A DNA stretch of 64,000 nucleotides from an uncultured Nitrospiraceae bacterium (GTDB lineage: Bacteria > Nitrospirota > Thermodesulfovibrionia > Thermodesulfovibrionales > UBA6898): the NCBI GenBank assembly GCA_963811165.1, contig CAWEQH010000008.1, positions 96,001 to 160,000 of the forward strand. The letters are read 5' to 3'. Positions 51,986 to 61,258 of this stretch are shown here, one piece after another. The first letter of the stretch is position 1; every line of letters begins with the position of its first letter. The notes beneath the pieces were generated by a model that saw nothing but the letters and a program-made list of their open reading frames with translations, did no database searches and was not told the origin of the DNA. The position numbers and the translations under genes are program-made.

Positions 51986-52611
51986 TCGCCCGTCGTGGTG
52001 AAGAGCTCGAGGAGGTCCTCAGAGAAATCCTCCATCTCGACAATCATCTTCCTCGCCATGCTGAGGTAATAGTTGTAGGCGATGACCGCCGGTATTGCGG
52101 CCGCAAGTCCCACAGCGGTTGCGATCAGGGCCTCCGCGATACCCGGGGCGACAACCGCAAGCGATGCGGAGCCCGCAGTCCCTATCCCATGGAAGGAATT
52201 CATAATGCCCCAGACAGTACCGAAAAGGCCTATAAAGGGTGAAGTCGATCCCGTCGTGGCGAGGAAATTCAGGTATTTCTCGAGTTTTACCGATTCAAGG
52301 GTCTCGTATCTTCTGAGGAGGCGCTTTACCTCGCTTTTGTCTCGGCTAGCCCCGTCTGAGTATACGGATTTAAAGACGTTGGCGATTGGGCTTAAGGAGA
52401 GGTTCTTTGTAGACTTGAAAAGATTTTTGGGATCACGGTTTGCCCGATATGCCCTCAAAAACTGCTCCGACTCGTTGTTCGCCTTCGAAAAATACCTTTG
52501 TTTGAAAAAGATGATAGCCCACGACATGACCGAGAAAAAAAGGAGTATCAGCAGAACAATTTTGACGACAACACCTGCGTGAATTATTACAGAGAAAACC
52601 GATTCTTTCAT
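51982..52611 (-). CDS. tolQ: TolQ
   Basis: SPFIGLFGTVWGIM, VAPGIAEALIATA. Confidence 0.94.
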   Translation of the reverse strand: MKESVFSVIIHAGVVVKIVLLILLFFSVMSWAIIFFKQRYFSKANNESEQFLRAYRANRDPKNLFKSTKNLSLSPIANVFKSVYSDGASRDKSEVKRLLRRYETLESVKLEKYLNFLATTGSTSPFIGLFGTVWGIMNSFHGIGTAGSASLAVVAPGIAEALIATAVGLAAAIPAVIAYNYYLSMARKMIVEMEDFSEDLLELFTTTGE

Positions 52612-52809
52612 TCACTACCCCTTAATGGTTTTGTTAGAATTTAAAAAATTCGCCCGATAAAAGTCAAATTAAGATTTATTCACAATTTCTATAATACATT
52701 ATATTGCATATCGCAATCACGGATTAATTAAAATGAATGTTTTGCATGATACAAGAGGCGCTCCTTCAGAGAGTAGTTTTGGGGCCGATCAAATAAGATA
52801 TTTAAAAAA

Positions 52810-52941
52810 TGGCGGAGAGGGTGAGATTTCCGCCTCGGGCGGACCCGCTGGGGCGGGCGAACCAACATCTTCACGGTAGAGTTGCCCTACAACGATTTTT
52901 CCGCCACAGGCGGATTCGCCGGGGCGAACAAGACCATCACC
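52810..52941 (-). pseudogene. partial duplicate of tRNA-Ser with two 29-nt hairpin insertions and an 8-nt insertion
   Basis: blocks nearly identical to 52967-53033 interrupted at 52829-52857, 52863-52870 and 52900-52928; 5' acceptor strand and D-loop missing. Confidence 0.85.
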
Positions 52942-52966
52942 AATAAATTTAAGTCAATAAAAAAAA

Positions 52967-53056
52967 TGGCGGAGAGGGTGAGATTCGAACTCACGGTAGA
53001 GTTGCCCCTACAACGATTTTCAAGACCGTCGCCTTCAACCGCTCGGCCACCTCTCC
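52967..53056 (-). tRNA. tRNA-Ser(TGA)
   Basis: GGAGAGG acceptor, ACGGT-CTTGAAA-ATCGT anticodon arm, long variable arm, GTTCGAATC, encoded CCA; 90 nt. Confidence 0.96.
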
Positions 53057-53112
53057 GAAGCACTTATTATAGCAAACATATCATTATAAAACCGCCAACT
53101 CATTAGTAGCAT

Positions 53113-53174
53113 CTCATGCCTCTACTTCACAATTCTTCCATCATATTTTCAAAACTTCTTCAAAAAGCCTCTGC
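53113..53174 (+). repeat. copy 1 of ~62-bp direct repeat
   Basis: aligns with 61197-61258. Confidence 0.85.
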
Positions 53175-53279
53175 GCAGAAAACATAATTTCACCTCGGCA
53201 TACAACGCCTGACTCAGAAGAGTCGTGGATAATAAAGCAGAGGACACGGCAAAAAAAATACTCTATCCTTTAGAGAAGT

Positions 53280-53540
53280 CTACGCCGCAATAATCTCTAT
53301 GCTCGATATCTGCGGCTTTGGCATTTTCATAGTAACTACGAAAACCGGAATGCCCTTCCTCTTATGCTGCTCCAAGATTTTGTAATTTTCCGCATAAAGT
53401 TCCTTGTTATCCTCCGGCAGAATCACGAGAACAGCGCCCTTTGGAATTTTGTCAAGAACATCCGGATTTTCAAAGGTGTATTTCATCCACTCTGAGTGAA
53501 GGTCGAGATTCTTTTTTATCATTTCTTCTTTAGTCATCAT
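53280..53540 (-). CDS. DUF5647-like small protein (often TA-associated)
   Basis: KNLDL..EWMKY.FENPDVLDKIPKGAVLVILPED; AGGAG RBS. Confidence 0.65.
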   Translation of the reverse strand: MMTKEEMIKKNLDLHSEWMKYTFENPDVLDKIPKGAVLVILPEDNKELYAENYKILEQHKRKGIPVFVVTMKMPKPQISSIEIIAA

Positions 53541-53611
53541 CTTAACTCCTTTTCGACGTATCTCATGGAGGGATCACGCATGATACACCTCATAAGATTT
53601 GAGCAGTCAGG

Positions 53612-53881
53612 TCAGTAGACTTCGTCATGGGTCCCGATATCGAGGAGACGAACTGTGTAGTCACGTAATGTGAAGACGATCCTCAGTTCATACGTCAGAG
53701 AGCAGGCATATTTGTCTTTCAGTTCTCCTGTCAGGGGATGCGTATGAAGGGGAGGGTCAAATCGATTGGGGGCAAGTTTACCGAGCGTTTCCGAATACTG
53801 CGTTCTCAAACGCGGATATTTCCGCGCCAGCTTTCTGGCTTTCTTCAGATATGCCGGAGCATATTCAATCGCCCACTTCAT
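53612..53881 (-). CDS. RelE/YafQ-superfamily type II toxin
   Basis: LHTHPLTGEL, SLTYELRIVF, LLDIGTHDEVY. Confidence 0.85.
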   Translation of the reverse strand: MKWAIEYAPAYLKKARKLARKYPRLRTQYSETLGKLAPNRFDPPLHTHPLTGELKDKYACSLTYELRIVFTLRDYTVRLLDIGTHDEVY

Positions 53882-54080
53882 CAAAGACAGCCTTTACCGC
53901 GTCATCCACAGATTTATAGCGGACAGGCGTTTCTTTTTCAGCCTTCAGGACGCGGTCAACAAAGGCCTTGCGCTTTTTCTGTTTTTCAAGGAGATATTGG
54001 ATGAAGTCCCTCGTTTCCTGAAGCGCGGGCTCGGTGAGCATTGAGAGCATATCCCTGATCTGTTCTATTTCACTCGCCAT
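53865..54080 (-). CDS. putative antitoxin
   Basis: 71-aa ORF (MASEIEQ...) overlapping toxin start; ETRDFIQYL and YKSVDDAV segments. Confidence 0.65.
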   Translation of the reverse strand: MASEIEQIRDMLSMLTEPALQETRDFIQYLLEKQKKRKAFVDRVLKAEKETPVRYKSVDDAVKAVFDEVGD

Positions 54081-54231
54081 TTTTTGATTAAGTTCGATTA
54101 TACTCACAGAAGCTGATTTCCCATCATATGCCTGTTGAGGCAAACCACCTTGACCCTCCTTAACCAAGGTAACGCCCCCGGCCTTTCTTGACAAGAACAG
54201 GAATTTTCTGCTAATTTCCTCACGGTATCTT

Positions 54232-54519
54232 ATGGAGGGATATCGGATGACGCGGGGTACAATTATTGCTGAGTCAGTTCCGTCCTTGTCAGCTAAAGTA
54301 AATAACATAACCTCTCTTTCGTTTCCCCTTAATTCCGAACGCTTTCGGGAAAGGAGAGGTTGGGTAGAGATACTGCTTCTGTTGATTCTCACTGCTTTTA
54401 TTTTTTCCACCTCTACTACATTTGCCTTCAAGCTTCCCGACACCGGCCAGACTAAGTGTTACGACAAGGCTGGCTCCGACACAAGCTGCATGACAGCAGG
54501 ACGAGGAGTGGAAAAATGA
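54232..54519 (+). pseudogene. truncated N-terminus of a DUF1566/Lcl-type secreted protein
   Basis: signal peptide then KLPDTGQTKCYD..G...SC, ends at start of next gene. Confidence 0.6.
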
Positions 54520-57500
54520 AGAATGAACTTAGGCAAAAGATTGTATTATTAGTGTGTTTTGTACTATTACCTGTCTCAGCATCCGCCTACACGCTCAAAT
54601 GGGCACACTTTAATCCTGCTGTGGTACTGCAAAACGCCACTGGCACCGCCGATCTTTTGTGCTATGCGGAAGGCACTTTTACATCAATTATGTTTAAGCC
54701 CAGTTGGAGCGCAAATGAATTGCAGCTTGAAAACAGAGGAGCTGGTATTTATGGAATTACTTTAAATATATCTGACCTTATAAACGGCTTGGCCAGCGAT
54801 GACGTAAATCGCAAATTCGTCGGCTATCTTCAGGTATATAACAATGCGACTTTAGTAGATGGTTCATTTAATATTTTCATCGATGTTTTAACTCCGGATA
54901 TACCTGAAGCGAGTTCTATATTATTAGGTGGTGATGTGCAGGTATCTTTGCACCTTTTTAACATGCTCGGTGCTTATGACACTCCCCTTGATTTGATCAC
55001 TAAGAAATTTTATAGCTATTTCAACGACGATTACGACTTTATTGCAATAATCTATGATGAGAGCAGATTCCTTAACAGAACTTACATGGGTGTTAAAAAT
55101 GATGTGCAAAATATAGGGCCTTACATTTTTGACAACTCGAGTTATTATGGAAGCAGTGGAAAATTGCAGGGTATAATCCAGTTTCCTATTCCAGAATATT
55201 TTGACCTCGCGGAAGAAGGTGCAATACACGAAATCGGACACAGGTGGATAAATTATCTGAACATCACCCCTCTTAGTCTTGGTATCCCTCATTGGCCAGT
55301 ATCAACGCTTGCAAATGATATTATGGGATTCACCATCCCGGGCAGTGGAGGTGTAGGTGGCTCTTTTCCTTATACTATCACTCAAGTTGGTGAGGACCAG
55401 TGGCAATTAGCGTTTGATCTTTCGCTCTATAATAGTCCGGGTACTTTCTCCGATCTTTCTCTATATCTCATGGGACTGATTCCTTCCAATGAGGTAGGTA
55501 ATCATATTGTATTTTTAAATCAGAACCAATCTATCAGCGACGGGGCCATATGGTCCGGTCCGGTAGCAAACATAAATGGAGCTTACATAGTCGGCCAGCT
55601 TGGTGAGCGGGTACCAAATTACTTGAACTCGCAAAAAGGATTCAGGATTGCGACAATACTTCTAACAAAGGACCAACTCGCACCCACTGAAACAATGCGT
55701 CTTTACGACTGGTTCGCAGCTCGATCGGCTTTAACTACTCGAACACCTGTTCATGAAGGTTTGTGGAAAACTACTTCTAATCCCTTTTATCTCGCCACAG
55801 GGGGCCGTGCAACACTGGCGTCAACTTTAATAGCCGGATCCTTTGGTTACTTGGACCATTTTGAAGTTTCGGCTATTTCCTCACCGCAGGCGGTCGGCGT
55901 ACCTTTCAGCGTAACTATCACCAAAAAGGATGCGTTCGGGAACACCCAGACAAGCTGGAATGGCGAAGTCGTTTTGAACTCATACATAGGCAATGTTTCC
56001 CCTATAAGGACTTATCTAACTAACGGCACTGCAACCATTAATGTGACGCTTGACAGCCCTGGATGCAATGTGACACTTCAAGCTTCAGGTGGCGGAAAAT
56101 CTGGCGTCTCTAATTATTTTACCGTCTCTGGTGGAAGCTCCAATGCTTCAATTGGCGGCACGGTAAGAGACGGGTCCGGGGTTAGAAGATCAGGGGCGAA
56201 TGTGAAGCTTACCGGGGACTGCTTGTCAACTGCCCAAACAGTTGTTACAGACAGCAAGGGGGAATACCGGTTTAGCAGTCTTAATCCGGGCGAATATTCT
56301 ATACAGGCTTTTGACGGTCCGGCAGATTGCTCAAGTTGCGGCAAGAGTTCCGTCGTAGTAAAGCCAATATCCGGGAACGTAACACAAGATCTCATTGTTC
56401 CCGGCAGCAGTTGCAACCCGCAGGCGCTGACGCCGATTTTATTGGTGCCAGGCATTATGGGGTCATCCATTGGTGGCGGCTCAGTGTATCCTGTGCTTCC
56501 TAAAACAGCTCCAAAATGGAATGAATTTATTTATTACACGGATTCATGGGGACTTCATGACCCCATGCGATTGGCAGGATGGCGCAATTTGGTCGATGAA
56601 CTCGGTAGTGCCGATTCCGACTATAAGGTGGGATGCACAATCTTCCCTGTCCCTTATGATTGGAGAATGGATCTGGATGATGCAGCCATGGATTATCTGA
56701 AGCCGTGGATTGATGAAGCGAAAAGGCAGGCGGGTACCGCCAAGGTAAACGTAATCGCCCACAGCATGGGAGGGCTCGTAACACGGGCATATATTCAGGT
56801 AATAATTCCGGAGATGCATTTGGCTGTTTGCATGCTCTGCCTTTACACCGTCCATGGAACAGCTCCTCTTTATTATATTGGGAGGGAGGCGACCCTGAGA
56901 CATCTGATACCGTTTCTTTCCTACACTCTACACCTGGCGATGCAATTGCCTCTGCTTTCGCTCATTTCTATCAGAGAACCTCTGAGTTGCTGTACGCGAA
57001 GATGTATAAACTACCGCTGGCCCCGATATTTTCTCTTTACAAAATACAGATGTACGACCTCCTTCATGGTCATGTTCCTTCAGCGAAACAACTCTTGCCT
57101 ACATTTAGTTTCCTTGTACCAAACGGTAAATTGAGCTGCGAAAACAATGACTGGCTGGATAAGCTCAACAGCGCTGGCGGCATAAATAGAATGGGCAAAG
57201 AAAGTGACACCGGAAAGGTCAGAACCAAGATTTTTGCCGGAACAGGCAAGCCGACATTGAATAATATTGCGGTGGGCCTCAAGTGGTGCGGCAGTCCCAT
57301 GTTCTACAAAGACGGCGAGCCGTTGTCCATATTCCTGACAGGGGAAACAAGTTCCAGCGACGGGACGGTACTGACCTCAAGCGCGTCTCTTGGAAGTCTT
57401 GTTGATTCTGCTAGCCCCCAAACCGGTTCACATGCCTCCTTAATCGATATTTACAAACTTGACCTCGTCGAGTACGTAACAGGCATTAGGCCGTTATCCA

Positions 57501-58651
57501 GTTCAGAGACAGCTAAAGTCAGCGCTCAAGCCGCAATTAGCGGGAATGAATTGACTATTGCAGTTAACGGGAGAGCCCAGCTCTATGTTATTGATCCTTC
57601 GAGTAGTAAAAGCGGTATAGACGCGGCAACCAGTCTGCGTGTTGATGAAATACCCGATTCAAAAATAACCGTTGATGTAGAATCCAGCAATATTGCTGTG
57701 CATAATGCAGCAGATGGGACTTACACTGTTTATCTCAAGGGCACGCGTGAGGAAGATTTTGGACTTGTAGTCGGCTATGTAGATAGCGAAAAAACAGTCA
57801 CCAAAGATTATGCTGGCTTTAATCATGCAGACACAACATCCTTCACTTTCACTGTGAACTCTGCCTCAACCGATAAGATCATTATAAACCACAATCCATT
57901 ACCGCCTGCCAACCTTCAGGCCGATGCCTTTAATTCCGCGGGACTCAAGACGAGGCTCACTTGGACTGCGAATACTGAGCCGGACGTGACAGGTTATAAC
58001 ATATATGCGAAGTATACCGACGAACCCTCTCTGGCACAAATAGGCACGGCAACAACAGCAATGTTTGACACGACAGATGAATGGGCGGTGGATTCCTCAG
58101 TCAAAACGAGAATCTATGCCATCTCCGCGGTCAAAGCGGACAACGCTGAGAGCTTCTTTTCAAATATGGCCCAGAACGACGACCGCGATCATGACGGCTT
58201 GACTGATGCACAGGAGACGGCCCTGGGCACGAACCCAGACAATCCGGACTCTGATGGCGATGGCCTGACCGATGGAGAGGAATATATCAGAGGTACGAAC
58301 CCGTTGCTGGCTGATAGCGACGGAGACGGCTATTCGGACCTCTTTGAGATCCAGATGAACGCCGACCCGAATGATCCGAATTCTGTGCCGTCTATAAGAA
58401 TAGCGGGAACGCCACCCGTGTATTACCCTACTCTGCAAGGGGCGGCAGATGCGGTGACAGAGACAAAGAATACCATTGAAATGGTAGGTACAACCTTATT
58501 CGGTGATGTGAACTACGTAAATACCTTTCTGACCAATTTCAATGGCGGCTTCAACACGCAGTATGGCAGCGGGACAGCACTGACGACCATTTACGGGACC
58601 CTGATAATTAGCAATGGTGCGGTGGTAATTGACGGCATTGTGATACAATGA
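54516..58651 (+). CDS. large secreted multidomain protein: HExxH metallopeptidase-like + Ig-like + alpha/beta-hydrolase lipase + FN3 + Ca-binding repeats (frameshift near 56800)
   Basis: signal peptide; HEIGH; LVPGIMGS, YDWR, AHSMGG; DGTV; DxDxDGLTD repeats; two overlapping ORFs 54456-57134 and 56828-58651. Confidence 0.72.
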
Positions 58652-61196: not shown

Positions 61197-61258
61197 CTCA
61201 TGCCTTCTCCTTCACAATTCTTTCATAATATTTTCAAAACTTCTTCAAAAGTCTTTGC
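61197..61258 (+). repeat. copy 2 of ~62-bp direct repeat, with 11-bp periodic TTCAnAA boxes
   Basis: TTCACAAttct-TTCATAAtatt-TTCAAAActtc-TTCAAAAgtct. Confidence 0.85.

Follow-up and report, generated by a model that had tools for sequence, protein, structure and literature searches.

What kind of sequence interrupts a tRNA copy twice, each time by exactly 29 nucleotides, and what puts it there? The question is raised by one locus in the stretch of DNA analysed here (64,000 nt, hereafter the window), in which an intact tRNA-Ser gene is followed, 25 nt downstream, by a copy of its own 3' part that carries two inserts, each made of two abutting hairpins. A reading of the sequence alone had proposed an ultra-short, structure-conserved element that is moved in trans, and this core of the proposal has held, with the twin hairpin found at many independent sites and empty sites present in the same genome. 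On balance, we lean towards the view that the 29-mers are a blunt-inserting, non-coding mini-element, lodged in a 3' tRNA copy that is left over from a likely selfish cassette built around a GIY-YIG nuclease gene.

The interrupted tRNA copy

The features of the locus are collected in Table 1. The tRNA, which is the sole Ser(TGA) gene of the genome and the sole tRNA of the window, and the interrupted copy beside it agree in coordinates and alignment with the sequence-only reading, as do the sequences and limits of both inserts. Freed of its inserts, the copy comprises 66 nt; against the final 67 nt of the tRNA it shows 64 identities, two substitutions and one deleted base, and the first 23 nt of the tRNA are absent from it. 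The copy and its two 29-nt inserts had thus been described correctly, and what had been missed is the single-base deletion and a third, smaller insert of 8 nt. The latter looks like an inverted copy of the opposite strand of the T-arm, and is possibly a fold-back product.

Table 1. Features of the tRNA-Ser locus, numbered from the first nucleotide of the window
Feature	Position	Strand	Remarks
Intact tRNA-Ser(UGA), anticodon TGA; source of the empty sites and working copy	52967..53056	-	ARAGORN; Rfam RF00005, 58.7 bits
Non-functional duplicate of the 3' part of the tRNA (about position 24 to CCA); putative right-hand remnant of the cassette	52810..52941	-	Also in G003 and G017; collapsed in G004
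Twin-hairpin element 1 (15-nt and 14-nt hairpins), in the T-loop of the copy, without target duplication	52829..52857	.	
Twin-hairpin element 2, in the anticodon loop of the copy, without target duplication	52900..52928	.	
Extra 8-nt insert, 5' side of the T-stem	52863..52870	.	Matching 7-8-nt insert in G003 and G017
AT-rich spacer of 25 nt between tRNA and duplicate	52942..52966	.	
First 21 nt of the tRNA	53036..53056	-	Repeated upstream, as a stub before the GIY-YIG gene, in G002, G003 and G017

Each 29-nt insert consists of a 15-nt hairpin, TCCGCC-N3-GGCGGA, followed by a 14-nt hairpin, YYCGC-N4-GCGRR, and the two inserts are identical to each other at 22 of 29 positions. On the plus strand they occupy the sites ATT^CGA (T-loop) and TTT^CAA (anticodon loop), where neither of them duplicates or deletes target bases, just as had been reported. 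When folded as single-stranded DNA, three of the four insert strands gave exactly the two hairpins; for the plus strand of insert 2 an alternative long stem of similar energy was preferred. The anticodon-loop site that element 2 occupies is also filled in many tRNA-Ser stubs. A search of Rfam over positions 52000-54500 returned nothing beyond the tRNA and one sub-threshold plastid motif, with no intron match. An assembly artefact seems unlikely at this locus, since two related genomes (G003 and G017) carry the same duplicate, both hairpins and the matching 7-8-nt insert.

Spread and covariation of the 29-mer family

The search for further copies in related genomes, which the sequence-only reading had suggested, was productive. 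A relaxed form of the pattern was found in 40 of 251 genomes of the window's order, compared with one for the reversed control, with 1 to 27 copies per positive genome and a concentration in four families. The strict pattern was found in 4 of 301 genomes sampled from the phylum, with none for its reversed control. Since the strict and the relaxed pattern both exceed their reversed controls, the 29-mer is not a product of chance; it is a real and widespread family. Scans of GTDB and of metagenomes each matched at least 121 loci. Most of the GTDB matches are unpaired chance matches in high-GC DNA, the first pattern used there having been too loose, and the paired loci alone were kept for analysis. 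According to their record titles, the paired GTDB loci among the matches listed come from Nitrospirae, Microgenomates, Nomurabacteria, Melainabacteria, Planctomycetota, Lentisphaerae, Bacteroidota, and Chloroflexota, and the metagenome copies among the matches listed form 58 target-site clusters from 122 rows.

Covariation of the second stem, first noticed between the two inserts of the window, extends to the family as a whole. The unconstrained outer two pairs are complementary in 104 of 115 de-duplicated rows, against a mean of 42 and a maximum of 66 in shuffled sets; with one row per site cluster (58), about 49 are paired, against 27 after shuffling (maximum 38). The first stem covaries too, between TC/GA and CC/GG. 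Compensatory changes in palindromes can also arise through template-switch correction, in the absence of selection, and because this process gives the same changes, the covariation shows that the palindrome is maintained and not why.

The genome of the window (G000) contains the two exact copies of the 29-mer and decayed ones at C4:404155 and C7:35469, and in it the single hairpins CCGCC-N3-GGCGG and TTCGC-N4-GCGAA are barely above background. In IMG/VR the strict pattern gave no matches, and four matches of the relaxed pattern, imperfectly paired and in high-GC DNA, were rejected as chance; one relative of the cassette nuclease described below was found there, beside tRNA-Ser-like fragments. 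Given this single relative and no true copy of the 29-mer in IMG/VR, carriage by phages is not supported.

Target sites and evidence of mobility

Target duplication is lacking in 44 of 50 paired site clusters and in 127 of 137 copies. Tabulation of the insertion sites yielded the consensus that had been sought, a blunt and symmetric target, T(-2)N^NA(+2), with T at -2 in 38 of the 50 clusters and A at +2 likewise in 38. Pairing between the flanks across the element, as in a three-way junction, was also considered and rejected, as covariation at distances 1-4 did not rise above shuffles.

The proposed mobility gained support from two further observations. At one bond of tRNA-Ala-type stubs the element occurs in both orientations (L162, L179, and L220 in one, L216 and L230 in the other), a case weakened by the nearly symmetric overall shape of the TC/GA form; and in G003 a further twin hairpin is nested within the copy in the anticodon loop. 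In G004 the two copies of the duplicate have merged into one by recombination. The decayed copy on contig C4 of the window's genome sits in a repeat family of which empty members are also present in this genome.

Targeting is not limited to tRNA loops. Sorting of 142 distinct copies by script into rough classes, in which a few of the rows called other are tRNA stubs by eye, gave only about 30 of tRNA type, 21 in a CTCATTC repeat family, 25 in short tandem repeats, three in another repeat, one in an NTS-like repeat, and 62 others. At tRNAs, the positions struck are the anticodon loop, the T-loop, the D-loop, the D-stem, and the T-stem. At exact tRNA sites, 19 of 20 asymmetric copies share one orientation, a strand bias that may be due to common descent.

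Other hairpin-bearing repeats occur in the genome of the window. One family of miniature repeats, characterised by CGCTCATTCTCG, a variable hairpin module and inverted ends, is present in about 23 dispersed copies (e.g., C8:433721, C9:44944, C10:1123072, and C4:404134); in other genomes the 29-mer is often lodged in it, and no coding partner was identified for it. A perfect palindrome of 20 nt lies within other repeats of this genome, one of them NTS-like (C4:11791, C4:586328, C8:600012, C10:451911, and others), and is probably a second mobile hairpin of the same kind.

A GIY-YIG cassette riding on tRNA genes

In G003 (L002) and G017 (L003), the same tRNA has upstream a 5' tRNA stub and a gene for a GIY-YIG protein of about 85 aa, the end of which overlaps the start of the tRNA; the tRNA is then followed by the 3' duplicate with both hairpins and the 7-8-nt insert. 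In G002 (L314), whose contig ends at the tRNA, a stub, half a hairpin and the GIY-YIG gene occupy the very place at which the window is empty; on either side of this gap the window and G002 match, the DNA upstream of the tRNA being closely alike. The order of the cassette is promoter, 5' tRNA stub with hairpin, GIY-YIG gene, intact tRNA, and 3' hairpin-bearing duplicate. Because the stub and the GIY-YIG gene of G002, G003, and G017 are absent from the window, its locus is, as judged by comparison with these relatives, the gene-less remnant of a tRNA-riding cassette. The duplicate had been taken for a plain copy of the tRNA; a tRNA copy it is, and its status as the remnant of a larger unit had gone unnoticed. 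The stub and the gene were likely lost from the window through recombination between the stub and the start of the tRNA.

The same layout was found at Ser(CGA) or Ser(TGA) genes in L066, L149, L155, L190, L194, L202, and L336. At some loci (L263 / L066, L305, and L333) the unit of stub, hairpin and GIY-YIG gene is amplified in tandem, in at least two copies, before tRNA-Ser.

In GIY-YIG-linked stubs of tRNA-Pro, Asn, Ala, Asp, and Ile (L341, L349, L324, L326, L329, L331, and L350), the anticodon arm is wholly or partly swapped for a foreign short hairpin, which differs from one nuclease group to another; at L341, by eye, the 15-nt first hairpin takes the place of the 17-nt tRNA-Pro arm. This replacement of the anticodon arm by a foreign hairpin suggests cutting at the hairpin bases. 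A related GIY-YIG subgroup (L319, L322, L323, L325, and L345) has an IS-like look, being flanked by short inverted repeats, CCCCGTTAGA ... TCTAACGGGG, and located between or inside protein genes, not tRNAs.

Strain variation and neighbouring genes

Contigs of five runs (X1, X3, X4, X5, and X7) agree almost perfectly with the window as far as about position 52736, past which they enter the upstream side of the tRNA, oriented the other way; what follows the 3' end of the tRNA in X1 and X5 is unrelated to the duplicate. Near-identical strains thus appear to lack the duplicate, and the locus would therefore be polymorphic. Among the public contigs of eight runs none spans 52747-52935; they speak neither for nor against the duplicate, which has its support in G003 and G017. 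The segment 52737-53076, which holds the tRNA and the duplicate, is inverted in the window with respect to the same five runs and to G001, G003, and G004; in these three genomes and in the near-identical strains the tRNA and tolQ are divergent. Because the tRNA promoter of the window is closer to that of G002 than to that of the near-identical strains, the segment is possibly an import.

Upstream of the tRNA, the region 53113-53884 contains a DUF5647 gene, a gene for a toxin resembling YafQ (below cut-off) and the likely antitoxin, and a 54-nt stretch at 53113-53165 recurs at about 61197-61250 of the window. These genes and the repeat suggest an island adjoining the tRNA. Two long ORFs of 892 aa and 607 aa, which overlap in different frames at 54456-58651, have the look of a single secreted multi-domain protein split by a frameshift, in which SdrD_B, carboxypeptidase-regulatory, and lipase-like domains occur.

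The nuclease and its association with the hairpin

A transposase or nuclease gene near the copies had been suggested as the thing to look for. This was borne out in part, as a small GIY-YIG nuclease does recur there and neither a Y1 transposase nor a reverse transcriptase was found. The ORFs neighbouring copies of the 29-mer were scanned in 137 of 208 candidate cases, most overlapping frames and short-flank loci having been dropped. Among these 137 ORFs, five matched PF01541 (GIY-YIG), which is the only nuclease or transposase family that recurs; the others are mostly unrelated housekeeping genes, with one IS110 transposase. Four-helix-bundle or GxxExxY genes are to be expected beside tandem-repeat sites, and neither kind was present among the 137 ORFs.

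The residues Y19, R29, H33, and E65 of the cassette protein, which we take to be the GIY-YIG active site, are invariant in 11 aligned rows. Its predicted fold (pLDDT 89) matches UPF0213 proteins and Slx1, and NCBIfam gave no named family above cut-off. Minimal stand-alone domains of the Slx1 type are a described branch of GIY-YIG proteins (PMC1564403, in the part consulted).

A profile was built on 11 cassette proteins, the seeds having been found through the hairpin, and it matched 47 of the 251 genomes of the order. By eye, 12 of the 13 best profile loci of the order have a twin hairpin (some decayed, or of 14+14 or 15+15 nt) and the other has one half; among the nine best loci that were neither seeds nor near-copies, eight have the twin hairpin and one the half. 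When 60 proteins were placed in a tree, 25 of the 26 rows of the tRNA-Ser group and 4 of the 34 others had a loosely matched twin hairpin nearby. The tRNA-Ser group has a support of 92/62 in this tree of few columns, and includes two starred subgroups and one long-branch Tyr row. The nucleases of Ala, Asp, and Val loci form groups of their own by tRNA type in the same tree, and have different hairpins.

Within the order, the close nuclease (E < 1e-27) is present in 11 of 40 element-positive genomes versus 2 of 211 negative ones, and the broad nuclease clade in 19 of 40 versus 28 of 211, a co-occurrence that is confounded by kinship and, since hairpins are part of the cassette, to some degree circular. 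The families differ: in f12 the close nuclease occurs in 5 of 6 element-positive genomes and in none of 31 negative ones, in the window's own family (f1) it occurs in 3 of 14 versus 2 of 25 (p=0.33), with 5 of 14 versus 9 of 25 for the broad clade, and f11 shows no association between nuclease and element. Across many phyla, the nuclease was found in 15 of 21 genomes with the element and in 4 of 26 controls, in a hand-picked comparison (23 paired loci from the 21 genomes, 26 unpaired controls, with high-GC chance matches and duplicates left out) of two sets that differ in taxonomy. The window's genome, which is 95% complete, has no cassette-type nuclease and no match to PF01797 or PF00078; it possesses a separate SRM-flanked GIY-YIG gene on C7 and a UPF0213-like GIY-YIG gene on C4. 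From the company that the hairpin keeps in relatives, we infer that the cassette nuclease moves it. GIY-YIG enzymes are hydrolases, and we know of no joining step in their activity.

Proposed mechanism and alternative explanations

SsnA, a GIY-YIG enzyme of similar size, cuts single-stranded DNA beside a hairpin (PMC11893778, in the sections consulted), and it serves here as a model by analogy. Together with the Slx1-like fold of the cassette protein, this points to a putative nicking of folded tRNA-gene DNA. The Slx1-like nuclease would nick the DNA of the tRNA gene at stem-loops that fold while it is single-stranded, and host repair, by fold-back or template-switch synthesis and then ligation, would put the hairpin in place and give rise to the partial tRNA duplicate. 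The survivors would be those outcomes that retain one intact tRNA. The hairpins could act as the recognition signal of the cassette or destroy the cut site in the spare copies; they would be dropped into other repeats of the genome as well, and the window copy would by now be an orphan. A more ambitious version, which we put forward only tentatively, is a new class of bacterial mobile DNA in which a Slx1-like nuclease drives hairpin-swap transposition: stem-loops of single-stranded DNA would be cut and hairpin modules of 15-30 nt precisely inserted or swapped, without a covalent transposase and without duplication of the target, and every nuclease clade would keep to one tRNA type and to a hairpin of its own. 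If this were true, few known mobile elements would be as small as the 29-mer.

The twin hairpin might instead be an independent passenger, inserted at TN^NA by another enzyme or host process and surviving in dispensable DNA, while the GIY-YIG cassette makes the tRNA stubs and then carries the hairpin along. We consider this, the main rival, less likely, although it accounts better than a role of the nuclease for the copies outside tRNA stubs, which are the majority and lie in several unrelated repeat families. The lack of association within f1 or f11 and the presence of other hairpins, such as the 20-nt palindrome, in the same kinds of repeats of this genome also agree with a passenger, and, as a 29-nt insert frameshifts genes, selection alone could confine it to dispensable DNA. 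It is harder to reconcile with the near-universal presence of the hairpin beside the tRNA-Ser nuclease group and its rarity beside sister groups with different hairpins, with the several separate positions of the same tRNA that were struck (anticodon, T, and D loops), and with a neighbourhood in which no other mobiliser recurs. Removable tRNA intervening sequences, with the copy spliced to a working tRNA, had been offered by the sequence-only reading as a lesser alternative, and are now scarcely credible. Precise inserts in tRNA loops, one of them in the anticodon loop, a known intron site, would be as expected of introns; the explanation fails because the copy is truncated and damaged (no first 23 nt, an 8-nt insert, a deletion, and two substitutions) and because all 14 tRNA-type sites with full flanks have an uninterrupted counterpart no more than 700 nt away (with short flanks, 6 of 14). 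The element also occurs in repeats that do not look transcribed.

Hardly any weight can be given to a local artefact or replication error with no mobile family behind it. None of the public contigs of the eight runs spans the duplicate and near-identical strains seem to be without it, as an artefact would predict, but the same duplicate and inserts are found in the independently assembled G003 and G017, and the same 29-mer at 58 site clusters in several phyla, by which this explanation is largely refuted. Mobilisation by HUH enzymes (peel-and-paste of the IS200/IS605 or RAYT kind) or by a reverse transcriptase, the route that the sequence-only reading had preferred, has become improbable as well. 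IS200/IS605 elements have hairpin structures and cause no target duplication, in which the 29-mer resembles them, and the strand bias at exact tRNA sites would suit such a route. Against it stand the absence of PF01797 and PF00078 matches from a 95%-complete genome and of Y1 or reverse transcriptase genes from the 137 neighbour ORFs, the two orientations at one bond and, judging by the ends of IS608, the lack of room outside the hairpins for guide and cleavage sequences. An RNA route was proposed for the double hairpins of Allomyces (PMC2800124, in the part consulted). The preferred reading is still that of a mini-element left in the remnant of a GIY-YIG cassette.

Comparison with known systems

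Ssn nucleases and their NTS/SRM repeats resemble the cassette in the stand-alone GIY-YIG gene of about 90 aa, the short hairpin repeats, and the IS-like layout, and the idea of a mobile unit was raised for Ssn and its repeats (Chenal et al., 2025; PMC11893778, in the sections consulted). The flanks of the cassette, in contrast, are tRNA fragments, and the word tRNA occurs 0 times in the main text of PMC11893778; precise insertion of a hairpin, as seen here for the 29-mer, is unreported in the consulted sections of that paper. A single-domain GIY-YIG gene of about 90 aa beside repeats, as in Ssn, was found in the relatives and is absent at the window locus. Membership in Ssn/NTS was rejected, the degenerate SRM motif giving no match in positions 52701-53100 of the window and in eight cassette loci; the same pattern finds both flanks of the genome's own C7 unit. 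This unit (L274; G000:C7:6323-6541) is a GIY-YIG gene flanked on both sides by SRM-matching repeats, and is likely a genuine Ssn unit of this genome. The cassette nuclease is 32% identical to the L274 protein over 77 aa, a distant relationship with a long tree branch, which suggests that the two belong to different clades.

Double-hairpin elements were reportedly described from the mitochondria of fungi by Paquin et al. in 2000. Two adjacent GC-rich hairpins inserted without duplication, by which such elements are recognised, are also what the 29-mer consists of. Those of Allomyces lack flanking duplications, and for the fungal mitochondrial hairpin elements in general the mobiliser is an open question, with intron endonucleases proposed (PMC2800124 and PMC4478555, in the parts consulted). 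In these same parts, the likeness of double hairpins and GC clusters to the 29-mer lies in short, GC-rich, non-coding hairpins, patchy insertion, and units that merge or nest; the mitochondrial elements are organellar and the yeast GC clusters have AG/ACT duplications, whereas the 29-mer is chromosomal, crosses phyla, and has its own sequence. It is also tied to a tRNA-riding nuclease, unlike the mitochondrial elements, and the likeness is functional, with no homology implied.

REP/RAYT sequences, the MITEs of IS200/IS605, and Rickettsia palindromic elements (RPEs) are non-autonomous palindromes without target duplication, of which the RPEs enter RNA genes. The 29-mer, which consists of two abutting hairpins and nothing else, falls far short of the RPEs in length. 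REP/RAYT is also mentioned in the consulted sections of PMC11893778. Assignment to IS200/IS605 or REP-RAYT, with which the lack of duplication agrees, was rejected, as no cognate Y1 HUH transposase was found in the genome or among the neighbours. A classical DDE MITE was rejected for lack of target-site duplication.

SegB is a phage enzyme, larger and cutting double-stranded DNA, in contrast with the cassette protein, which is a minimal domain of the Slx1/UPF0213 type with a single relative in IMG/VR. The two are alike in that SegB of T4/T6 is a GIY-YIG gene associated with tRNA genes that drives a segmental duplication including a tRNA gene (PMC13096335 and PMC2988022, in the parts consulted). 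A hairpin insert was not found in the published account of SegB, as far as it was consulted (PMC13096335). A search of the literature, chiefly of papers outside subscription journals, returned no description of the element or the cassette, and the 29-mer is a real mobile mini-element, apparently undescribed hitherto.

Significance

Very short non-coding palindromes include the double hairpins and GC clusters of mitochondria, and the manner of their spread is an open question (PMC4478555 and PMC2800124, in the parts consulted). A bacterial example whose target is defined, whose alleles occur both filled and empty, and which comes with a candidate enzyme of 85 residues makes this question testable in vitro. 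If the explanation proposed here is true, a function would be provided for a group of unannotated stand-alone GIY-YIG genes, and the recurrent tRNA pseudogenes of groundwater and sediment bacteria would be accounted for. The family may also yield new hairpin-directed nickases related to Ssn.
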